Program-made: the position numbers and the translations under genes
The notes under the pieces: model-generated
Told to the model about the DNA's origin: nothing
Seen by the model: only the letters and a program-made list of their open reading frames with translations
Databases searched by the model: none
DNA from: Collodictyon triciliatum
Lineage: Eukaryota
Length of the DNA stretch: 33,003 bases
NCBI GenBank assembly: GCA_043381765.1
Contig: JBHJMP010000903.1
Location: forward strand, 1-33,003
Direction: 5' to 3'
Shown: positions 4,395 to 32,189 of the stretch, one piece after another
How positions within the stretch are numbered: the stretch's first letter is position 1
Layout of the letters: each line of letters begins with the position of its first letter

Positions 4395-5484
4395 ATGGGC
4401 GAAAGTGACTATTCTTTCTCACTCACAACATTCTCACCCTCCGGCAAACTCGTTCAAATCGAGTACGCACTAAATGCCGTTGCAGCCGGGGCAACTGCTC
4501 TTGGGATCAAAGGTATGTAAACCCCCCTTTTTTTTTTGCAACAAAACGAATCATAAAAAATGAAAAAAAAAATAGAGGGGTATACAAGAAAAAGTGAAAT
4601 ATGTTTTCCTTCGCAACCTCTAAATTAGAATAGTACATTTAATAAGGCTGCCTAATAATGTCAAACAACCCAACAAACTTACAAATAAATGAATAAATAA
4701 ATTAAAACAATCCAGCGCGTAACGGTGTTGTGATTGCATGTGAGAAGAAGCTTCCCTCCACTCTCGTGGATGGCTCATCTGTCCAGAAATCCTTTGCTTT
4801 CACCGACTCCATTGGAGGCGTTTATGCCGGAATGGGCCCCGACTTTCGCGTCCTTGCAAGGAACGGGGTAAAGAGTGCGCAGCAATATTATCGTACATAC
4901 CAGGACCCCATCCCGACAAAGGAGCTTGTCAAGGAGCTTGCGTCAGTGATGCAAGAGTTTACTCAATCCGGGTGCGTTTGTCTATATTATCTCGGTATCT
5001 CACGTCATGTGCCGGATTCATATACATTTACTTAATCATACTGCAGCTATTTCAGCCTGAATGATTTGTTCTCCGCTTCCTGATTGTTAATCTATAAGAT
5101 TCATTTCCTTATTTAAAGGCAAATCGAGAATGGCATTGTTGTGGTGTTTGTATAATGTCCCTTTTTATGTCCCTATTCCTCGACCGATTGAGTACTAAGA
5201 TATTCTATCGCATCTGCAGAGGTGTCCGACCGTTTGGGGTGTCCCTCCTCATCGCTGGCTATGACGACAATGGACCGCAGCTCTTCCAGGTAGCTCATTT
5301 GATGTCGCATTATCGTGCCCTTCTATTCTCTCTGTTCTCATTCATCTTATTTTTTTTTTTGGTTTGTATATAACTATATGGTTTCCCATGTAGGTCGACC
5401 CATCGGGCTCCTTCTGGGGATGGAAAGCATCAGCCATCGGAAAGGGTGCCACCAATGGAAAAACCTTCCTGGAGAAGAGGTCAA

Positions 5485-5551
<67 letters not shown>

Positions 5552-5915
5552 TCTCTCTTTTATATATATTAGATTTTTCTCTATTTCCCACCAATAACGT
5601 TCTCATTCTTTTCTGTTCGTTGTTTTTAAATCCATCGGATACCAAATAAGCTCCCTACGTCATCATTGTCCTCTCCCTTTTCTCATTCCTCTCACCACAA
5701 TCTAACCCTAATCCATATCCCACTCCAAATACCGCAGATACAACGACGACATCGAGCTGGAAGACGCCATCCACACTGCAATTTTGACTCTCAAGGAAGG
5801 CTTCGACGGGCAAATGACTGAACACAACATCGAAATCGCTATTGTCTCGGACACTCGCAAATTCACCGTTCTCACGCCGAGCGAAGTCAAAGACTACCTG
5901 GAGGAAGTCCAGTAA
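4395..5915 (+). CDS. PSMA2: 20S proteasome subunit alpha type-2, 5 coding exons, 235 aa
   Basis: Exons 4395-4512, 4716-4971, 5220-5289, 5394-5479, 5738-5915 (708 nt, all GT-AG). They give [26 protein letters not shown]...[22 protein letters not shown]...[18 protein letters not shown]...[16 protein letters not shown], diagnostic of alpha-2. Confidence 0.98.
5488..5557. repeat. (CT)n microsatellite in PSMA2 intron 4
   Basis: Direct dinucleotide repeat starting a few nt after the donor at 5480. Confidence 0.97.
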
Positions 5916-6345
5916 CTGCGCAGTCTGCCCAAGACATACTCCTTTGCACCTGCCCACCCATCGCTCCTTTCCCGCTCGTCTTACTTTCACTCTCTTTTGC
6001 TCCCATCCGCCCTCACGAAATAAACGAAAAGAAGAAAAAAAAAACAAGGAAAAAAAAAGAATGAGAAGGGAAGGGAATACCTTTGGTTTGGTTTGGTTAG
6101 TCAGCACTGATTCATGGATTCTACACACTGATGACGCTTGTGTATATACTGATTGAACTTTTATTTTTCTCATTCTATATGCTATTCTTCACTCTCTTAA
6201 AAAAAACATCCAAAAGCCAGACCAGACTTTACAATTTTTTTTTTTAATAGTGTGCTATATTTTATCTTGCTTGTTTGTGGGTGGAGACAAGACAACACCC
6301 GGGATTCCAAACAGGCGAGAGTCTCTTGTTTGCCGCAGGCCGAGG

Positions 6346-9300
6346 CTAGTAGCCTGTTTGCTGCAGCTTGTAGAGATAGACTTTCCCTGTGGCGCTTGTG
6401 CCGGGCTTGCGGCCAAACGGCGCAGACACAATTGCTGTTTTCTCATCAATCGCAACATCAAAGCCGAAGCCATCAGAGCCATCGGCTGTGGGTGATTCAT
6501 ACCGGCGCCACTCGCCCCAAACGCCAGAGTCCAGCGTGAAGATGTAAGCTCGACCTGGATACATATCAGCCCGGAAAAAAAAGGGATGAAGTGAAAAAAA
6601 AAAAAAAAGTGAAGCAGGAAAAGTGAATTATTTCCAATACGCCCAGCCGATACGCACTCAATCGCCCCAGTTTTTTCAGACATAAAAAAAAATAAACTAA
6701 AAGAAAAAAAAACCTCCACCGCAATAGCAGAATAATAACAAGAGCAATAACGTTGACAAACCTGCAATCCCACACGTGCTTTCCTCATCACATGACCTTG
6801 CTCCCACCACCATCCGGCCGCCAAGCACATCCACACTGTATCCAAAGTGCCGCCCGTCCTCCGCATTGGCAGCTCCGATTGAATATTGATACGCAAAGAG
6901 CCCGTTTACATCCATCTCGTATATGCAAATGCTGCCTGCATCTTGCCAGCCAGTGGAGTCCGAGACGGCCGAGATGAAAAGCGTCTTCCCAAGGGCAATC
7001 ACCTTCCAGCCAAACCCTCGCCGTGTGGTGTACGCAATTGTCTGCGAGAGGCCCCAGTTCCCGTCGGCATAGTGGAATACATAAACCGCTTCAAGTGCTG
7101 TATTGTCAGGGCGGTTGGAGACAACAACGCGGGTCTCGCTTTGCATAGAGACACAGAATCCAAGGTATTCATGGGCGTTTGGGTGCTGTCTTTGGACGAT
7201 TCTTGACTCTTTAACCACACGGTTTTCGACCCGAATGACATAGACTGCGCCTGAGTTTGGGTGAAGAGCTGCATCTCCAAACTTTGGAGCTCCGATGGCA
7301 GTCACGTTGTTCACGGCCCACACAGACGTGCCGAAGTTTGCATCGCCATGGAAATCAACCGACCTGAGTGTGCGATATTTTCGGAAAGCCAGGGCTTCGG
7401 CGTTCCACTTGAATATCACCACAGCCCCCATGAGGCCGCCGGTCATGGTGGACTTTGGGACGGTGACAAAGAGCAAGTCATTATGCAGATGAATGGCAGA
7501 TCCGAATCGAGCATCTTTCTTCTGGAATCGGTGGGAGAGCCTTTTGAAGAAAGTCCACACACCATCCACCAGAGTGTAGAGCATGATATAGCCGCCATCA
7601 CACGATGCCGATGGATTCAAGCAAAAAGGCACGCTGATAACTGCGTAGCCGTTCCACAATGCCACTTGGTGTCCTGATTTTCCTGATAGCCAATTAATTG
7701 GAGGGTTTAACTCTTGACTATTCAAGGAATGAAATGGACTTTTTGATATCGTCTTAGATGGGCTTCGTGTCTGCAGTATCGATTTCGAGCTCGTCTTAAA
7801 CATGGAGTTAGATTTTGACTTTGGCTTGGATTTGGATTTGGATTTGGATTTAGATTTGGATTTTGACTTGGATTTGGATTTGGATTTGGATTTGGATTTG
7901 GATTTGGATTTGGATTTGGATTTGGATTTGGATTTGGATTTGGATTTGGATTTGGATTTGGACTTTGACTTGGGTTTGGACCTGGACCTGGATTTGGACC
8001 TGGATTTGGATTTGGACTTGGATTTGGACTTGGATTTGGATTTAGATTTGGATTTAGATTTGGATTTTGACTTGGACTTGGACTTGGACTTGGATTTGGA
8101 CCTGGACTTGGATTTGGACCTGGATTTGGACCTGGATTTAAACTTGGACTTGGACTTGGATTTGGACCTGGATTTGGACTTGGATTTGGATTTGGACTTG
8201 GATTTGGACCTGGACTTGGATTTGGACCTGGACTTGGGTTTGGATTTGGACCTGGATTTGGATTTGGACCTGGATTTAGATCTTGTCTTTGAACGGCTTC
8301 GAGAACGTGAAGAGGCTATTATTCAAGAAAATGAAATGATCAGAAAATTATCATCAGGTAGCCAAAATCATAAGCATATAGTATTGCAACATACATACTC
8401 ACAAGTATTTTTTTAATACTTACACATTCCATAAGAAAATGCAAAACACGCTCCGGACGGATAATATCCAGAGTACGACCAATAATCACCAATGACCCCA
8501 AAATTCTTATATATTGCCAGGCTAAATCCGTACATGCTGGTTGCTGGATTCAAAGCATCACCGAAAATGATTTGAGAGGGTGTCGACCAACCGCTTCCGT
8601 AATTTGCAAATACAAACACCTTTCGCGAACTTCCATCACCAACGAGTAAATTTGGATAAGAGAATGCTATCGAATTGCCAAGTCGCGAGGTTGATGGAGC
8701 TGTCAACAACTGGTTAAAGCTCCATACAGAAGATGAGTAGGTAAAAATATAAACCCCATTACAGGCTGTCCAGCAACTAACAGCAACACTTACATCAGAT
8801 ATTATAGCCACATAGTTTCCAAAGGAAGAGGAGGGAGGAATGGAGGACGAAAAAAGCCGAGAAAAGCTTGTGGAAATTACATCCCCACTCCTACTGAAGA
8901 CATAAGCTGCCCCTTGGTAAGAGTTCTCTCCAATAGCGCCGACAAGAACAAGTCTGGGGCTAAGGCTTACTGCTCGTCCGAATCTAGAAACTGCCCAGCA
9001 TGATAGCGTATTGTACTGACTCCATGCGCCACTCGACAGAGTAAATGTATAGACAGCACCCATGTCATTGGAGACTGACCACGCCCCTGCCAGTAAAATG
9101 GTGCTATCCATCGCCATCGAAATACCCAACCCCAGTGCCGAGGTGATTGAAATAGCACTTTGAGAAACCCATTGGGAACTTTGGTAGGTATATGGGTAAA
9201 TGGTTGTAATCGTGGATGACTCGCCCATGGACACGATCAATCTGTCGTCTGTAACTGCAACAGTGTATCCAAAATATGCATTTGACGAAGGACTTGGAGA

Positions 9301-10887
9301 AATAACCTTTGACTTATACACCCATGAAAAGCCAGACCGGGTGTATATTCTTACAGAACCGGCATTCAGCATGGAGGCCACGGAATCTTGGTTTGCACCA
9401 ACAGCGAGTGTGTTCCCAGAGGGAGAAATGGAGACAGATATCCCATACTGTGCACTAGAGGCGAGCGACTCTGTTGTTGAAATCATGTTTGCAGTACTCC
9501 AGACACCAGACCTGTATGGGCTTCTTGAACGGGACCATGAGGTTGATTGTGGAACTATGAAAATAGATAAATTGAGTAGTATAGAAAAAGTATGTTCTAT
9601 AGTGTAGAATGAAAATAATGGCATAATGATAAATCAATAAACAAGTTCTTATCACTTAAGTTTCATTCGGTTTTTTCTAATTGATGGTATTAAATTCATT
9701 ATGAAATGCTTTACATACTTCAATAAAAAAAAAATATTCAATCATAGTTACATACCGTTTAATCGATAGGTGAAGAAAGCACCTGATGGATATGGTGTAC
9801 TCTGCATGGTATCACCGACAGACACGATATTTCCAACTATAGAAACCGAGGTCCCATACCTACCATATGTAATTGATGGTGTAATCTCTGTGGGAGTTGA
9901 AAATGCCAGCCCTGAAATTGTGTAAACATAGGCCTTGCCTGAGGCATCACCAACAATTAAAAAGGACGAAGAGGACGCAACAGATGCTCCCAAGTTACTC
10001 GACCCAGTAGCTGTGAGTTTTTGAGAGTAACCCCATGATGAACCTCCAAATGTGAATATCGCAACAAACCCACACTTATTACATCCCAAAGCAACCATGG
10101 CACTTGATACAATTGTAGTACACGTTCCTACTTTACTCCCCCAACCAAGTCCTGGAGCATTCAAACGAGTACTTAAAGTGCTGGTAGCTGTGGTTGACGT
10201 TCGAGAGTATATATATGCAGAACCCTCGTTCAAATTTTCTCCATCGGCTCCAACAAGCAATATTGATTTTGAGACTGAGACACTGGAACCGTACCCACTC
10301 GTGCTACCTGCAATACGTTGTGCATAACCCCATTGAGACACATTCCATGTGTAAAGGTACACAGCAGGCTCCCCTGTCGCTGTAACTGCGAGATAGTCAT
10401 CACTTATTGAAACACTTACACCGAAAGTACCAGACATCGATGGACCAGTGATTTTTACTTGCAATACCCAGAGCGTCCCCGATAATGTGAAGGGATAGAT
10501 GGACCCCACTCCAGATGGGTCATTAGGGGCGGCAATAACAAGCCGGCTGTCATCCATAGCGATTGCTTGTCCAAAATTCGACAAGGACGATGTTGACCCT
10601 GTTATCTTTGTCTGATAGACCCAAGTGAAGCTTTGCCTAGTATACATTAACACAGACCCAACTCCACTCACTGTGCCTCTGTTTTCAGTATGGGCACTGG
10701 CGGCCAGGTATTTCCCGTTTGGAGATTGACAAATGTTTGAGGAAAATAGTGAATTGGAAGCTACCGTGCTGGAGTCTGGCCCGAGGGCATTCTCATAGAT
10801 CCACAGCTGTCCTTGTGTCACTGAGTCGGGAAAACGGACTATCAGGCATATTGCAATGCTGATGAACAGAAGAGACCTTTGGGTCAT
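6346..10887 (-). CDS. Predicted secreted ~1341-aa protein: signal peptide + FG-GAP beta-propeller x2 + (K/R-S)n tract + third FG-GAP propeller
   Basis: Exons 10887-9756, 9554-8424, 8315-6762, 6554-6346 (4026 nt; three phase-1 GT-AG introns) join four ORF-track ORFs into one frame. N-terminal hydrophobic core LLFISIAICLIV. Many FG.SV.I....L.VGA(P)....G.VY.F repeats (e.g. FGTSVWAVNNVTAIGAP, FGRAVSLSPRLVLVGA, FGFDVAIDEKTAIVSAP). No C-terminal TM segment. Confidence 0.85.
7804..8313 (-). repeat. Coding hexanucleotide repeat (AAR/AGG-TCN)n encoding ~80 Lys/Arg-Ser dipeptides
   Basis: After the acceptor at 8316 the frame reads SSRSRSRSKTRSKSRSKSKS...KPKSKSNS into MFKTSS at 7803 (510 nt, no stop). 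Confidence 0.85.
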
Positions 10888-12270
10888 CTGTGGGCGGTTA
10901 AATATGTTGATATATTGCCAAAGCTACAAAATATGCGATTCAATTTTGCAGCAGTTTTTAATCCGTTTTTTGGTTTAAAACTAGATTGGCTTGCACAACC
11001 AGTCAGGGTAATAGGGCGAGACATACCATGCTTGGTCACACGCTCCCCTACTTAGAATCTCTTCTTTGTGGCCCAAGAGTATCCTTCTTGCTTTCGCCTT
11101 TCCCCTGAAACTGGTATGCTAACTTTGGTCGTGTTTGTCGCTGTTGTTCTTTTATTTTAAAAAAAAAATATCAGAACAAAACGTGTGAGTGAAAAAATAA
11201 AAAAAAATCGGAAAGAGAAATAGAAAGAGAAAGAACTCAGAACAAAGAAAAAGGGAGACTCGAAGTTAGAGCAAAGAAAAAAGGGTAAGTCGAAGCCACT
11301 CGAAGCGAGTTCCAAATAGATTTTATCTGGAGTAAGTAGCTTAGGCCTTTTTTTGATCTTCTTTATCGCAATTACTTCACTTTCCAAAAGTAATCTTGAG
11401 AATCCAACATCCTGTTTTTATCAACGTTTTTTTGGATGAATCTCGTGTGTTATTTTCATGTGTTTTTTTTAAAAAAAAAAAAAATTCTATAATGCAAACA
11501 AAAAAAAATATCACTCTTTATAGCAGCATCTTCTACTCGCGCCTGCTTTCCGCTATGCGCACCTCCCTCGCTCCCTCTATGCCTTTGCCCTCTTACAATT
11601 TGCATCGAATAAAGGGGTGAAAAAAAGAGTACGAACAAGCTTCTCAGTCTGAGAGAACCAGTCAAAAGACACAAAAGTGGGCTCTAGTTTCTTGTCCCGA
11701 TCATCAGAGTACACAGCAGTTTTTCTTCCTCCAACGCGACACAATCCTGTCAGTCTTGCAGACAACAATCACCATGTTCCATCACGCCGTTTTGTCATCC
11801 TGTTCTTGGACGTGAATGAAGCCAATTTTATTCGAACTTGTCTTGGTTGCGTGCTCAGGAAAACCGGTTGGCAACCAACCACAATATTCGACTTGCGTTA
11901 AGTCCGAATAAATTGAGACTGTGCGAAAATCAGAATTTCTTTTCTGATATATCTTTCCAAGCTATTATGATTACACTATTAGATGATAAAGCACATATTT
12001 GTTGCATGTACCCTTTGTTTAAAATTTAACAAAGAATTTAAAATAATATTATATTTTCCATAAATGGTATTTCTATGATGTTCCAGCAGGTTCATGCTGG
12101 CTGGGACTTCCGAATGTTGGATTTTGCAGTTTTGCTTGCATTACATGCGTTCAGTATGGACCATTAGAGTCATCACATTTAGAATCGAGACTTCCCCACC
12201 GATTAGATTAGGAGTTGAATGAAGCTCAAAATAAATATATTTGCTACGTAAAATATCACAGGGTGGGATA

Positions 12271-16745: not shown

Positions 16746-17300
16746 GAGATGCACTCTGAGTCTGGTATGCAAAGCGGGCTCCATCCTACATGTGCAAGAA
16801 CTCCTGTATATAAATAATCAACTGATGTGATAACAAAGTCTGTTTCTTCGTATCGTGATTAGTAGATACATTGGAGAATACATCTCATTCGACATGATAA
16901 TCGAGTTCTCATGCAAGCGCTTTTCTTTCTTTTTCATTTTATTGTTGACAGGCTTGTGTCTCGAATGGCCGCTGATAAAGCACATAATCATACTCGTTTT
17001 TACACCGCATTGGTAATGTATTCTGTTTCGCACTGGTTTTTTTTAATAGGCTGTGTGAATAAACGCAATAGAACCGCACCCACAGCAACCGAGAAGGGCC
17101 GATCCAACTTGCTCCAAAAACATAAAAGAATACAGTGATATCAGCACACACCCCTGGAAAAGAGACTGTCAGTTACCCAAGCAGGTAAGTTTGTGGCTAT
17201 TGCGACGACCTAACGAAAGAAAAGGAATTATTAAAAAAAGAAAAGAAAAGAGAAAGGAACAACAACTTTGTTGAAAACACCCGACCAACAAGTAGCGTCC

Positions 17301-19165
17301 ATGCAAACGATTCCACGATGCAAAACTCACCCTGGACGAAGGTTTCTGCATCGTCTCCTTGTGTCTATCATGGTGCTCGTCCAGACAGCTCCTTATATTT
17401 GCTCAGCCGCCCAGTCAATCTCCCAAAAACCACTGCAATGGCACACACCGGACATAAACCGCGTTCGTTTGCAGACAGTTTGGAACGGATTGACCGGCTC
17501 CTCGGTCTCCATCTATAACGGATATGCTTTGGTTGCAAGTCCAGGCTCACCTGACTCAGTTACTGGTGGGTCTGTCCATCTGTACGAGATTCCAAGCACA
17601 AAAGCACCTGCTTATGGTTCTCTCTGGCTATATACAAGCAAATACTTTCAACCAAATGCAATTTCAAACTTCTTTGGCTCTTCTGTGAAGTTGGTTCCCT
17701 CCTCTAAGATGGTTGCCATCGTGGGTGCGCCAAGCGGTATCCCTGAAGGTACGATGTCAAAGACAGGGTTCGTCGCATATCTAAGAGACCCAAAGATTGT
17801 CTTTGAGTTTATTACGATGCCTATGTCCAGCCCGGCGAAAGGAGAAAAAACTGGGTGCTTAGTTGGCGCATCAACCAAGTTGATAGGTTATGTATCTTGT
17901 GGAATAAATGCGGTGACACTTGTTCGTGTCAATTACCTTACAAGCTCTGGGGAGTATTCACCTCCAGGTAGAGTCATTAAAAAGGTGAGATATCCTCTGC
18001 ATTACGGATCTTTCAAATCTTTTTCCATGAGTGAATCTCACTACGTTATCGGTACCAGCGATACATGGATGGTGATAGTAGGGGCATATAATCTAACAAC
18101 CTCAAAGGTGGACGTAGTCTCGTCGGTTTTGGAATGGCCCAGCGTATTATCAGACCAGCCCAACACTAAGAACTCTTCATATTTCGGTCATTCCGTATCA
18201 GTAACAGAGGATTTCATCGCTGTCGGAGCACCTGGCTACAACCAAAAATCAGGGTTGGTTATCTTGTATGATGTACACACACTTGATTTCACTAAGATAA
18301 TATATCCACCGTCATTTGAAGCGCGCCGTTTCTTTGGCGTCTCAGTCTCCATGGAAGGCCCATTTATTGGGATTGGAGGGTCAGGGTGCGGATTTATGTT
18401 TGAAATGTGTTTGCCTGGGAGAGCATTTGTGTACCACACAAACGGAACTATACTTGCCACCTTTAAACCTAATGACGGAATGACCGGAGACAACTATGGT
18501 ATATCTGTTGATATCACATACAACTTTTTTATTGTCGGAGCAGACCGGTTCTACGCAGACCGAAGCGGTCTCGCATATATATACCCATCAAATCTTACCT
18601 CCTGGGATGGAATATATATTCCAACAGTCCCTACTAATTCAGCATCAAAGTCGGCAAGAAGGACACACTCTGTTAGTCCGTCGAAAACCCAACAACCTTA
18701 CTCCATGGAGATGTATCAGAAAGGTGCTTTTCTTTTGGTTTATTTTTCTTCTTTAATCTGCCTTCGTTTTCTTCGGTTTGTGAAAAAATCGAAGTATTTA
18801 TAAGATGAATGTATAATCTAGAAATCAGTTCGCACAATAACCTCCAAATGTATTATTATGACCTTCTCTGATGCAAATTTCTTTTTTCATTTGTCTTTTA
18901 TGACATATCACAGAGGGAGAAGGAGGTAGCATGGCCCCAATCATCACAGGTGTATGTGCTGGTATTTTTGTCATCATATTATGTATTTTTGCTTGGGTGA
19001 GGAGAAAAAGAGTGATGAACAAGGTTAGCTCGTATGAGATACAACAGAAAGATACGCAAATAAAGTTAAAATGAAATAAAGTTTGAACCAACTACCCCGC
19101 ATTTCGCCTTGCAGAAAACTCTTCTCAAATCAATACAACATGACGAGAGAGCGCATCAGAACTGA
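17301..19165 (+). CDS. Single-pass type I membrane protein with FG-GAP (integrin alpha-like) beta-propeller, 527 aa
   Basis: Exons 17301-18723, 18914-19023, 19115-19165 (1584 nt). Signal-like LLVSIMVLVQTAPYICSA. FG-GAP repeats FFGSSVKL..VAIVGAP, YFGHSVSVTEDFIAVGAPG, FFGVSVSM, YGISVDITYNFFIVGA. S/T/P stalk, TM helix IITGVCAGIFVIILCIFAWV, stop-transfer RRKR and a short tail. Confidence 0.85.
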
Positions 19166-21828: not shown

Positions 21829-24800
21829 TCACTTGAACCTGGTCTGGTGGGAACTCATGGACCGGGCTTCGTCTTCCTCTCCATCGAGCGCCTTGACACT
21901 CGCCCAGAATTCATCCTCCACTTGGCGCAGAATATCATCCGACGCACCGTCCTTCTTCTCGGCCCGCGATGCGAGGGCAGACGCCTTCTGCTTCTCTTTC
22001 ATCTTCATCTCCTTTGCCCGCAACCCGAGGTTCTTTTCCTTCTTGGTTTCTCGGTCGAGCATCTGTCAGCGGCACACAAGATTCGACAGGAGTTTTCAGA
22101 TGATGTCACGATGCTTCAGCGATAGGGAGTAATAGAAAGTAAAGAGTATGACGGATGGGACGTAGTTTTCATGGCGAGGGTTATATCGGCTTTGTTGCGT
22201 GCCTGCGAGATGGACTGCTTCTCGTTGGCTTGGAGCATGTGTAGCCCATCGCAGAGCTCAAGCAGTGTAGTGGAGCCGTCCGACCCTCCCACGGCCACGA
22301 ACCGCCCTTGCTCATGGATACGGATGGATTGCAGCGAGGAGTCTCCCACCTAAATATGCGGTGGTGTATCAGGACTAATGTTTTTTTCTGGGTGATTATA
22401 AATGGGGGGAAAAAAAAAAACAATTAGAAAATGAGGATGAGAAAAAACGACATATATGAAGAAGGCGTAAGTATGCTATTCTTCATGGGCTTGGGTGTGT
22501 ACCTTCATAGTCAGGATTGGGTCGTTTTGCTTATACAGTAAGTCCCAGAAGTCAACGGTTCCGTCTGACTTTGTTGAAAGGAACACGCCTGGTCGAGATG
22601 GGCTCCAGCTTCCAGATGTGATGTAGGACATGTAATACTTTGTCATCATAATGGGGCTTCGCACGTCTTCATTCCAAATCTTTCAGGTATGTCGAGATAG
22701 TGATTGAATCAGGTAAGATGAACTTACTTTTTGATAAAGATTCGAAAAGATTTATAGTTTTCTAACAATAGTGAAAAAAAAATAGATGAATTAAAATATT
22801 GATTCAACACATATATTCTCAAACAAGAATATATGTGCAAAATTATTATCTTTGTTATCATCATCATTTTAAAGTTTTTGAAATCAGTACCCTTGTTGTC
22901 CAGTCACCCGTGGTCATAAAGTACTTCGGGAAGAATGGGTTGCGCTGAAGCGATGTGACTGGCCCATGGTGTCCATGATACTGCACTCCGACTTTTTCAA
23001 CAGGCTTGCTGGCTTTCCGGTTACAGGATATCACCGTACCTTGTTCTGTTCCCACCATGAACTTTGTTGGCTGCGAGTGAGATGAAAGTGAGAACATATT
23101 GAAGGCCAATAAAAAATCATAATAAATATACATTTTTTAAAAAAAGGTATTTGTGATGGAAAATACAAAACATAATTTGAGCTTTCGTGAATGAATCAAG
23201 TCAGGAAACATACCGTTGATGCGTCGTAATCCATTACAATCCCTCCATACTGCTTTCCCTCTGGTTCGGGATTCAATGAAAGCATATCTGAAGGCTCTCC
23301 GAGCTTTCGAATATCCCACCAAAGAACCTGCCCGTCTGTAGACACGGAAAAGCACTCTGTGCCGGTCTTGTTGTTTACCCAAACAACATCATAGATTGGG
23401 TCGCGGTGGCTTTTTTCTATCGAGGATGAATCTACTGGCAAAGACCCTCTTCTGACATCCCAAAAAGCTTTTTTTTCCCCCGACATATATGAATTGGTTA
23501 AGGCAGAGTAGTGCATAAGTTAGGTACAAATGTGAACCCAAACAGGAAATAATGAAAATATGTATATGTATGTATATGTATGTATGAAAATCAATCTACG
23601 AATAATAATAAAAAAAAAAAAAACAAACCAATCAGTCCATTATACGAGCCACCAACCAGAATATTAGAATCTTTTGGATTGTACTCTAAGCAATAAAGGT
23701 GTGATGCAGACTGAATTTCGAGTTCGGGATAGTTTGAGTTTTCCAGATCCCATATATATGAATTGAGTGATGAGCCATCAAACGACTCCTGAAACTGCGT
23801 GAACGAATATGATATCGCGAGTTTCCTTGCTCCGTCTGGATACCAACTCAGAGACGAGGCCACCCTCTTAGTTGGGCATGGGTCCCTGCAAAAGTGCGTA
23901 GTTGGAATTGACTTTTTGAGGGAAAACAAAAAGATGAAAGGTAGAAGAAAAAAAAAAGGGGACGACATGAATCCAAGGACGGCACAGTAAGTATGAATCA
24001 TGATTTTCATGCCATAAAATTTAAAATAAGAGAAAGCGAACTACTGAAGAGAAAAGCACACACTTGAAGACGATGATGGGTTTTGCTGACGGAGGTTCTC
24101 CAGAGTGATCGACTTCAACACCAGAAAAATAATTTTCATAAATATCGATGGCGTAGTTCTGGCGAATAACATCCTCAAGTACAGACCCCAGCGATTTCAC
24201 ACTCTTTGCAAATTCATCGGTCTTTTCGATCTAAACGTCCAAGTAAATATACTATTCAGAATCTACTATATAAGTCCCTTGGAATATAAAAGAACCAAAG
24301 AATGATTCCAAAGGTAAGAAATGTGCTACATGTGAGACCTAAATTAAAAAGTGAGAACAAGTATGCCTTTTTTCTGTGTCGGGTCATTGATTCTGCTTCG
24401 GCCACATCAACATCTTTCGGCCAACCTCCTTCAACATGATTGATGCCGGTGTTGCATTGGACAAAACGTTCTGTATTCATCTGGCACACAAAGGAGTGTA
24501 TAAGAGTGGGTTTAAAAAGGCGCATCTATTTATCTTTTAATGTATTTAGACAAAATGAAGAAAAATCATTCATTCTCAAAATCCTTATGGAAGCTTTATA
24601 ATTATTTCTATCCTCTTTTTTTTTCTCCCTGCGATTATTGTCATTGGTATTATTGTCATTGTTGTTGGCATAAATATATCATTTTCATTATTGTTGTTCA
24701 TCTTAAATGTTGAGGTATTTCACCCGAGCTAAAGTCGAATATAACCGACCGAATCAAAGTATGAGGTTTCAAACTTTGAAATAAAAGGCAAGCGAGGTCA

Positions 24801-30651: not shown

Positions 30652-31648
30652 TGATAGGAAGATTAGAATATGTAGATTTAATTCAGGTCTATACAAACTG
30701 TGTGCATCCTGATACTCGCGCTTTTGCCAACGACAGATAAGGCTGGATACCCAAGTCCTCAAACAAAGCTGGTGTCGTTTGGTTCATATATAGGATTTCG
30801 ATGTCTCTCCAAACCGGGTTGAAGGGTTGGAAAGCTCGTTTGTTTGTGAGAAAGGATGGCATGGGTTCTAAGTGTGGCTGTGTTAGTATAGCAGATTCGT
30901 AGAAAGTTTTCAGCCGAGTGGCCTTTCTCTTCGGATTCATAACTCGCTCTTTCATGATGTACCATGCTTGTTTAATCAGCGCCGCATCTGGATTTTCCAA
31001 ATACCGCATATGAATCAAAGGAAAGCTAATTCCTGACACATATATTATGGATGATAATGGGCGAGTAGAAATCCCAGGGCACCTAGGGACGTGAATTTTG
31101 TGGACACATGACTCTTTTGTAGTACACCAGTCCAGTCCTGGTGCGTCAGCCCAAGTTATGCATTGACGTCGAACATTGGGCTGAAAACCTCTTCCCGAGT
31201 CAAATCGGTAGAATTGAGGAGTTCTGTAGACATGCACCCATGGCAACATAATCATTTGACCAGATTCAAGACCTCTAACTAACCTACCGAAACTCACCAG
31301 GTCGTCTATTTGCCCATTTCCGATTGATTCATCAACGTCCATGAACAAAAAATGAGTCCCGCCAAACTTTCTTCCCTCCTCGAGAAGTCTTTGCTTCATT
31401 CTTAATTCCTCGAAGTTAGTCTCCCCGTCTAATATGTCTTTTTTGTCATCAGAAAATTCGGTCCACCGCATTATGTGTACGTTTGTATAGTTTTGGTCTT
31501 TAATAACTTTTTCAGCCAACTCAATACAGCCATCTGTAGAGTTATTATCGAGAATTATTACCTCGTCACAAACTATAGACAGAATTCCAAGAAAGGTATT
31601 GATATGGTCAACCCCATTTCTTACGTGAGATAACCCTATAACCTTCAT
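30197..31648 (-). CDS. Glycosyltransferase family 2 (GT-A fold), bacterial-type; probable second exon 30561-30197
   Basis: MKVIGLSHVRNGVDHINTFL...CDEVIILDNNSTDG...GRKFGGTHFLFMDVDE carries the GT2 N-terminal motif, D..S.DG and DxD. The ORF is open upstream to ~31831, so the start is uncertain. A phase-1 donor TTG G|gtatcc can join the 30561-30197 ORF. Confidence 0.8.
30575..30655. repeat. (TAA/TAG)n trinucleotide repeat in the probable GT2 intron
   Basis: Direct repeat; source of the poly-Leu ORF. Confidence 0.95.
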
Positions 31649-32189
31649 TTTTTCACTGTTTTTGAAAAAATGAGCCGAAAATCTGTCTGTGATTCGGTTA
31701 GTTACTCCATCAACTTCCAGAGATATTTGGTTCTCTTTCTTGAGCCTTTCTTCTTTTAAGAATACTCTTCTGGCAAGACTCATTATGGATTCTTGTTTCG
31801 GCAGCACTAAATTGAGATTCAAGATTTGCGCCTTTTGAGTGGCATAATAAAAAGGGAATGATACCGGTATGTCAATAATCTATCATTTAGTATTACATGT
31901 CTTGCACCCCTCAATCATGTCTGCTATCTTGTAGTAATATATTAGGCCAGAGGCTCGCCTATTGCCTCTGTCATTCATGTCCCCGATAAGCCTTATATTC
32001 GAATTTAAGTTATAATTGATTTGTTCTATAGAATTAACATCATATGTATTGAATTTATTTGAATCGAATAAAGGGAAAAATTATATATGTTAAATTTATT
32101 GCCTATATGATTCGGCGATTCCGTTCCTATATTCATTCGTGGAGCTGTCTTCGTAAAAGAAGTTGAAAAGGATTGTTCTTGAGAGTTGA

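Follow-up and report, generated by a model that had tools for sequence, protein, structure and literature searches.

What does the intron-split gene at positions 6346–10887, on the minus strand of contig JBHJMP010000903.1, produce, and what might its product do? The gene lies in a 33,003-nucleotide stretch of DNA, which was analyzed as a whole and is called the window here. An earlier note had described the product as a secreted protein with three FG-GAP propellers and a polybasic Lys/Arg-Ser tether, a combination regarded as unprecedented. Our analysis revealed that its third propeller belongs to a large family of C-terminal modules (denoted as the C domain), which stand behind many different heads in the same genome. 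The single gene is less singular than first thought, and the family is the more interesting object. We propose, with about even confidence, that the protein is a secreted and surface-displayed modular adhesin or recognition protein of a predatory flagellate related to Diphylleia, in which variable heads are connected through a stalk to a constant docking propeller.

The gene model comprises four exons that join in frame into 4026 nucleotides, encoding 1341 residues and a stop codon, with no internal stops. Introns 1–3 are all of the GT..AG type, lie in phase 1, and are AT-rich, with GC contents of 0.22, 0.26, and 0.35, respectively. The open frame and these introns agree with the earlier prediction that four separate open reading frames (ORFs) splice into one protein of about 1341 residues. 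All four ORFs match the Pfam family FG-GAP_2 (PF14312) with 34–68 bits, against a cut-off of 23, and seven FG-type motifs were located in each propeller by a regular expression, or by eye where one was missed. Propeller 2 shares 34% identity with propeller 1, while propeller 3 shares approximately 24% with the other two. The leader core has a mean hydropathy of 1.88, and the signal peptide was called from this value together with an end common to the paralogs, x-x-G/A followed by Q. The Gln at this position was observed by eye in 20 of the 24 visible paralog leaders and likewise in the Diphylleia rotans homolog. Beyond the leader, every 19-residue window has a mean hydropathy of 1.62 or less, and therefore no transmembrane (TM) helix is predicted; neither a TM segment nor a glycosylphosphatidylinositol-like tail follows the final blade in the last exon. 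The picture of a secreted protein without a TM helix, carrying three FG-GAP propellers and a flexible basic tether and probably adhesive, is supported by these data.

Propeller 3 matches at least 73 places in the genome (96 candidates scored), including at least 46 loci, itself among them, at E < 1e-19. Both numbers are minimum values, and alleles may account for some of the near-identical pairs. Of the 40 loci examined, 34 yielded the last exon and six gave no match to it. In all 34 testable paralogs, a phase-1 GT..AG intron is located right after the second Cys pair (in locus L062, a donor one codon off the extension was used), and the C domain is the last domain, with a stop codon directly after the final blade. 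The present gene displays the same set of features: two invariant Cys pairs, a DGSDGFGFDV-like last blade, the phase-1 intron, and the C-terminal position. The upstream ORFs (n = 30) are diverse. Twenty-three encode WD40 heads, with up to 41 scored repeats and some on Ephrin_rec_like rods; five encode Big_9/cadherin-like (immunoglobulin (Ig)/cadherin-like) chains, one is only Cys-rich, and one is only of low complexity. FG-GAP heads in a separate exon precede the C domain in L049, L062, and L063. The spacer before the C domain (n = 34) is basic in nine paralogs, (Gln-Ser)n in five, mixed in one, and absent or shorter than 20 residues in 19. Consequently, the combination cannot be called a one-off: the order of propeller, (K/R-S)n tract, and C-terminal propeller recurs, for example in L063 and L062, and the basic tract itself is found before the C domain in the nine paralogs mentioned. 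In L083/L109, in L090, and probably in the neighboring gene at 17235–19065, similar heads and stalks are followed by a TM helix, which takes the place of the C domain. A phase-1 donor follows the last strand in nine of 11 paralogous heads, the other two not being located by the script, and this pattern is the one that would be expected of exon shuffling.

To characterize the C domain, the 314 residues in exon 3 were modeled by AlphaFold2 with 35 sequences. The resulting all-beta model has a predicted local distance difference test score (pLDDT) of 87 and a predicted template modeling score of 0.88, and its best fold matches are integrin alpha propellers, with TMq values up to 0.66 at about 15% identity. 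A weak profile match to integrin alpha-6 (E 0.009) was also obtained. The seven-bladed propeller architecture is assigned by the model and fold match for the C domain, and by seven sequence motifs for each of the heads; propeller 2, modeled without an alignment, gave a pLDDT of 33.5 and no usable fold. Among 20 sequences, the pairwise identity is 0.36 in the top-face loops (131 positions), 0.19 in the bottom loops (27 positions), and 0.41 in the core. The top-face loops contain both Cys pairs, as well as conserved Asp, Asn, and Pro residues. A quick, midpoint-drawn tree of 52 rows, with 19 of the 35 C-domain alignment rows and the D. rotans domain, placed propellers 1 and 2 in a separate clade of N-terminal heads (11 rows), with a Shimodaira–Hasegawa-like approximate likelihood ratio test (SH-aLRT) value of 100. 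The 20 C domains, including that of D. rotans, lie on one side of a branch with a value of 92. That the three propellers are equivalent binding heads is not supported; propeller 3 is a distinct, family-constant module.

Relatives outside the genome were sought by a profile search over 1.84 billion representatives, from which the best 150 of 74,745 matches, ranked by summed score, were considered. Multi-repeat FG-GAP_2 proteins crowded this ranking and may conceal additional single-domain relatives. Among the 320 fetched proteins, the best single-domain scores belong to seven JGI/Logan near-copies (363–464 bits) and to the TRINITY_DN3004 isoforms of D. rotans (203–206 bits), and the remaining proteins score 125 bits or less. 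Among those above 90 bits, a P-x-C-x(4-10)-C-x-x-G signature is present only in proteins of the same lineage and of D. rotans. Searches of a 90% protein collection with the C domain returned generic FG-GAP_2 proteins only, at 20–33% identity, and missed the D. rotans relatives; the ESM Atlas returned bacterial FG-GAP clusters only. The D. rotans protein P0189 (836 residues, from a transcript) contains a leader, an FG-GAP head, a short Ser/Thr/Arg linker, and a complete C domain in one frame, which indicates that the head–linker–tail join is real in the relative. Isoform P0199 diverges from P0189 at the residue of the conserved last intron, and P0197 (421 residues) ends right after the head propeller; these isoforms indicate that intron-retaining contigs occur in D. 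rotans too. The source lineage is, as judged from sequence, related to Diphylleia (Diphyllatea, CRuMs): an 85-residue exon of the neighboring proteasome subunit is 89% identical to the D. rotans protein, and the other eight matches are at most 69% identical. Diphyllatea are described, in the part of the source used here, as freshwater predators of algae and cyanobacteria with thick-walled resting cysts (PMC11603278).

The (Lys/Arg-Ser)n tract, which had been estimated at about 170 residues, measures 168 (residues 758–925). It consists of 79 Ser, 68 Lys, and 15 Arg, among others, with 83 basic residues and no Asp or Glu, and Ser occupies 79 of the 84 even positions. It contains no dibasic and no R-x-K/R-R site, owing to the strict alternation. 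Over its 84 units, the coding hexamer deviates 34 and 14 times at the third positions and 15 times at the K/R position, and elsewhere 3, 5, and 2 times. Since the hexamer has no insertions or deletions and varies mostly synonymously or between Lys and Arg, the tract is maintained as protein. Throughout the genome, (X-Ser)n tracts give at least 168 matches, overlapping ones included, from 150 scored of 2460 candidates, and across the 29 loci read Gln predominates as X, with Lys, Arg, or Glu occurring too. The constancy of Ser and the exchangeability of X point to a spacer with modifiable Ser residues. In L109, whose FG-GAP head is in L083, and in L090, a basic tract directly precedes a TM helix (hydropathy 1.84 and 2.24, respectively), which is followed by basic residues. 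This location argues for an extracellular stalk rather than a splicing domain. Serine/arginine-rich (SR) splicing factors combine one or more RNA recognition motif (RRM) domains with an RS domain and have no signal peptide. Here, no RRM match at E ≤ 0.1 was found in the four ORFs, a leader is present, and the Lys to Arg ratio in the tract is 68:15. The resemblance to SR proteins, to which the earlier note had pointed, is superficial, as (Gln-Ser)n also replaces the tract in paralogs.

Four sequencing runs (X1–X4) were compared over positions 8283–11100; the tract and intron 3 are located outside that stretch. Run X1, presumed to be RNA, provided two contigs that are 95–99% alike to the gene. 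In contig 1, intron 2 is missing and propeller 2 runs directly into the beginning of the tract, the shorter side of the join covering 33 letters; contig 2 lacks an extra intron upstream (intron 0). The upstream exon revealed by contig 2, which the earlier note lacks, extends at its 5' end past the compared stretch. As it ends in ATG, the protein may begin one Met earlier. X1 differs from the gene at 67 positions in all; the 40 listed are all in exon 1 and comprise 31 synonymous and nine non-synonymous changes, and from these the ratio of non-synonymous to synonymous rates (pN/pS) is about 0.10 for exon 1. The gene is transcribed and under purifying selection. Two freshwater metatranscriptomes (X2 and X3) match over 167 and 163 bases with zero differences, which shows presence, not expression level, and run X4 gave no match over the compared stretch. 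Intron 3 was accepted because its position is kept in all 34 testable paralogs and in the D. rotans isoforms. The X1 joins observed are those of introns 0 and 2, and the triple-propeller form is predicted from the gene model.

According to the proposed mechanism, the leader would route the protein into the secretory pathway. Through its conserved top face, the C-terminal propeller would then bind one common putative partner, either a membrane protein or a glycan, on the surface or coat of the cell that makes it, and this docking would stand in for the TM helix that follows similar heads and stalks in other genes. The Lys/Arg-Ser tract would form an extended, disordered stalk, probably modified at Ser and without convertase sites. 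Given 0.35 nm per residue for an extended chain, it could reach up to about 60 nm and keep both heads away from the cell, where the two Ser/aromatic-rich head propellers may bind prey, microbes, or a substrate. The basic charge may add electrostatic stickiness, although the family does not need charge. A bolder extension of this model is possible yet doubtful. Here, the C propeller would be a surface-display tag, comparable to a dockerin or a bacterial sorting domain, through which one receptor or coat polymer shows dozens of interchangeable secreted heads (hypervariable WD40 rings, Ig chains, and FG-GAP propellers) on adjustable (X-Ser)n or Cys-rich stalks. Exon shuffling would have built such a modular coat for prey or pathogen recognition in a lineage next to Amorphea, CRuMs branching beside the group of animals, fungi, and amoebae. 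If true, a large family in which propellers with the integrin-alpha fold serve as a common tail instead of a head would reveal a further role of this fold in early adhesion, and the model would explain how the anchorless secreted WD40 proteins of this genome stay on the cell. The C domain offers a tangible bait with which to search for the partner. Given the basic Ser dipeptide stalk, caution is needed before an RS/KS tract is annotated as a nuclear splicing domain.

Several observations weigh against the reading of a surface-docked adhesin. The conservation of the top face is partly the generic FG/P/G pattern of all FG-GAP blades, and the mean identity is 0.37 for the C domains versus 0.31 for the heads; being barely more alike than the heads, they deserve the word "constant" for their position and ancestry more than for their sequence. 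The SH-aLRT value of the C group is under the starred level, in a quick tree. In exon 1, a single base is missing from X1 at 10139, where five identical bases follow one another. Moreover, only part of the proposed splicing was seen in X1: the 8424/8315 junction is joined, whereas the 9756/9554 junction is unspliced in the sole RNA contig covering it, and retention of intron 1 would end the protein after propeller 1. The main product may then be a free single-propeller protein of about 380 residues, with the longer form minor or confined to other isoforms, an explanation we judge improbable. That contig 1 reads unspliced through 9555–9755 while its intron 2 is spliced, and that D. rotans P0197 stops at the equivalent point, speak in its favor. 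However, intron 1 has a GC content of 0.22, stops in all frames, and three X1 indels, and no separate leader for exon 2 would survive the X1 deletion at 9585. Equivalent phase-1 donors are found in the nine paralogous heads described above, and D. rotans also has the read-through form. The X1 contig with intron 1 begins 30 bases before the intron-1 donor, as would be expected from an assembly fork at the donor with 31-letter words, which we take to be the word length. The same deletion at 9585 lies inside the stretch that would be added by an alternative in-frame intron-1 acceptor at 9596, which was rejected accordingly, as was an internal ATG at 9624 starting a separate propeller-2 gene.

A further difficulty is that a conserved C-terminal binding domain fits a cross-linker of the cyst wall or extracellular matrix equally well. 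The C propeller would be a lectin for wall polysaccharide, the heads would bind other wall components, and the spacer would resemble the Thr/Lys/His spacer of Acanthamoeba Leo. We consider this unlikely. The thick-walled resting cysts of Diphyllatea (PMC11603278) are in keeping with it, as are the accounts, in the parts of the sources used here, of Acanthamoeba wall lectins as secreted multigene products with or without basic low-complexity spacers (PMC6541295) and of integrin-like propellers clustering with PVL lectins and tachylectins (PMC8023676). On the other hand, the heads are very diverse, with long WD40 arrays, Ig chains, and Cys-rich rods that are receptor-like rather than wall cement, and the transcripts come from X1 and two freshwater metatranscriptomes whose life stage is not given. 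Rather unlikely, in our view, is a multivalent glue or prey-capture matrix that is discharged or secreted in free form, which comes near the view of the earlier note. All propellers would then bind foreign surfaces, and the polycation, left unmodified, would adhere to anionic prey walls or condense with polyanions inside a secretory granule. Points in favor of this reading are the absence of an anchor of any kind, the tract charge of +83, a C-domain part that is net basic in 29 of 35 members, and the predatory life style (PMC11603278). Against this, 24 of the 34 paralogs either have no spacer or carry the neutral (Gln-Ser)n, and in TM proteins this basic tract forms the stalk next to the membrane, so that spacing, not charge, appears to be the common task. 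Lys/Ser-rich tracts also recall diatom silaffins, just as RS dipeptides recall SR proteins. A silaffin-like biomineral template or a nuclear SR-type protein is nonetheless very improbable: the leader and the conserved Cys pairs are present, no RRM was detected, the tract lies outside the membrane in TM paralogs, Gln-Ser substitutes for it, and the part of the Diphyllatea source used here does not mention a mineral covering (PMC11603278). The surface-docked modular adhesin remains the reading we prefer, and the features on which it draws are summarized in the table.

Table. Features of the propeller gene in the window.
Feature	Positions	Strand	Basis
Exons	10887-9756, 9554-8424, 8315-6762, 6554-6346	minus	In-frame join
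Upstream exon (5' untranslated region, final ATG at 11029-11027)	11027..11100	minus	X1 contig 2, joined to 10887
Intron 0, 139 nt, GT..AG, phase 0	10888..11026	minus	Skipped in X1 contig 2
Signal peptide (predicted), residues 1-26, likely cleavage before Gln27	10810..10887	minus	Hydrophobic core, paralog comparison
Head propeller 1, FG-GAP_2, 7 blades, Ser/Thr/Gly-rich	9756..10809	minus	PF14312 E 1.8e-14
Intron 1, 201 nt, phase 1	9555..9755	minus	GT..AG, GC 0.22, stops in all frames
Exon 2: short Ser/Arg linker remnant, then head propeller 2	8424..9554	minus	Pfam, motifs, tree
Intron 2, 108 nt, phase 1	8316..8423	minus	Skipped in X1 contig 1
(Lys/Arg-Ser)n stalk, 168 residues	7804..8307	minus	Sequence composition
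Family-constant C-terminal FG-GAP propeller, blades 1 to 6 (part), two invariant Cys pairs	6762..7704	minus	AlphaFold2, fold matches, paralogs
Intron 3, 207 nt, phase 1	6555..6761	minus	Position kept across family
Last exon: end of blade 6 and blade 7, motif DGSDGFGFDV, then stop	6346..6554	minus	Pfam, paralogs

The window contains other genes. On the plus strand, positions 17235–19065 hold a second, divergent FG-GAP_2 gene (E 3.4e-14) with a long branch in the quick tree; across a predicted intron at 18725–18913, it continues with a short Ser/Thr stalk, then a TM helix and a basic tail that is also short, and it looks like a type I membrane counterpart. The proteasome alpha-type subunit gene mentioned above (about 4396–5916, plus strand) has several introns and is convergent with the propeller gene. 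On the minus strand, an intronless ORF of 396 residues at 30689–31879 shows weak glycosyltransferase family 2 matches under the cut-off, and WD40 exons at 23196–24040, with weak propeller matches only in Pfam, presumably resemble an axonemal dynein intermediate chain.

Elsewhere in the genome, a second C-terminal subtype (C2) follows Tyr/Trp-rich FG-GAP heads in L072, L075, L069, and L082 (G000:C5639, C2742, C1125, and C3395); it is sister to the main subtype, which it adjoins in the tree with an SH-aLRT value of 95 for both. Head L081 contains an inserted DGYW-type repeat. A 2715-residue open frame in L037 (G000:C949), composed mostly of WD40 repeats, lies ahead of a conserved C domain, and the heads of L032 and L040 consist of DUF4114 with SibA-like and cadherin-like Ig chains, which are domains typically seen in the secreted proteins of bacteria. 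The bacterial-looking FG-GAP_2 ORF in L068 (G000:C1099) has the highest PF14312 scores in the assembly and may come from a contaminant contig. Very long (Gln-Ser)n coding tracts, several exceeding 400 residues and filling whole contigs, were found in L102, L113, L114, L116, and many small contigs; they adjoin TIG, cadherin-like, or unassigned domains and probably break the assembly. Pfam analysis of 11 ORFs with (X-Ser)n tracts detected TIG in one, an Ig/cadherin-like domain in one, and no family in nine. The domains after the Gln-Ser tracts in L104 and L111, which have no Pfam match at E ≤ 0.001, resemble cohesins by eye.

Among known systems, the integrin alpha head has the same FG-GAP seven-bladed propeller fold as the C domain. 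The part of a previous report used here names a cation motif, a membrane anchor, an Ig-like leg, a KxGFFxR tail, and an integrin beta partner as marks of integrin alpha, and reports an integrin beta but no alpha for Rigifila (bioRxiv 2020.04.29.069435). In the present protein, the Ca-binding DxDxDG motif between FG and GAP is absent, as it is from all 35 C domains, and no Ig-like leg, membrane anchor, or KxGFFxR tail was found, the stop codon standing right after the last blade. A search of the genome for integrin beta (PF00362) gave no match, in a fragmented assembly and with no match in the control genomes either. Judged by its domains, the protein is not an integrin alpha: unlike integrin alpha, it is without leg domains, a TM helix, and a GFFKR tail, and the conserved propeller is C-terminal. 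Bacterial secreted FG-GAP_2 (PF14312) proteins belong to the same blade family and make up nearly all database matches, at 20–33% identity, but they lack the P-x-C-x(4-10)-C-x-x-G signature, and the gene described here is intron-split and eukaryotic.

Expanded and mostly secreted FG-GAP families in protists, and dipeptide stalks in bacteria, are already known. The part used here of the report on Pirsonia, a parasite of algae, describes an expanded FG-GAP family with signal peptides in 60% of members and TM helices as well in 20%, upregulated in zoospores (PMC13524835). Like the present family, that of Pirsonia diadema has expanded in its own lineage, belongs to a protist attacking algae, and consists of FG-GAP proteins that are mostly secreted and carry various additional domains; in contrast, it combines FG-GAP_3 with EGF domains in a stramenopile, and that part of the report mentions neither a common terminal domain nor an (X-Ser)n stalk (PMC13524835). 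In the open-access literature, we found no paper dealing with the present family, with a C-terminal FG-GAP module common to many proteins, or with Lys-Ser repeats alongside a signal peptide. The Acanthamoeba lectins Luke, Leo, and Jonah, in the part of their description used here, are likewise secreted multigene families with optional, sometimes basic, low-complexity spacers between binding domains, whereas they use CBM49, 8-Cys, and CAA domains without propellers, and their cellulose binding is demonstrated (PMC6541295). The Ser-Asp stalks of staphylococcal Sdr proteins are extended, disordered, and glycosylated, and the Sdr/Clf adhesins share the order of a head, a strictly alternating X-Ser stalk of variable length, and a C-terminal anchor, according to the part of the source used here (PMC9881980). 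In L083/L109, an alternating X-Ser stalk likewise stands between a head and a TM helix. The Sdr/Clf proteins differ in being bacterial and without homology, with an acidic stalk and an LPXTG anchor, whereas X here is Lys, Arg, or Gln and the putative anchor is a propeller. The closest system is provided by the uncharacterized D. rotans proteins EukProt EP00002_P015508-P015512 (TRINITY_DN3004; P0189, P0197-P0199). They differ in having a single head of another FG-GAP subtype, a linker of about 30 residues versus 168, and a C domain of about 27% identity, but share the leader, the FG-GAP head, a linker, the C propeller with both Cys pairs, the position of the last intron, and the lack of a TM helix.

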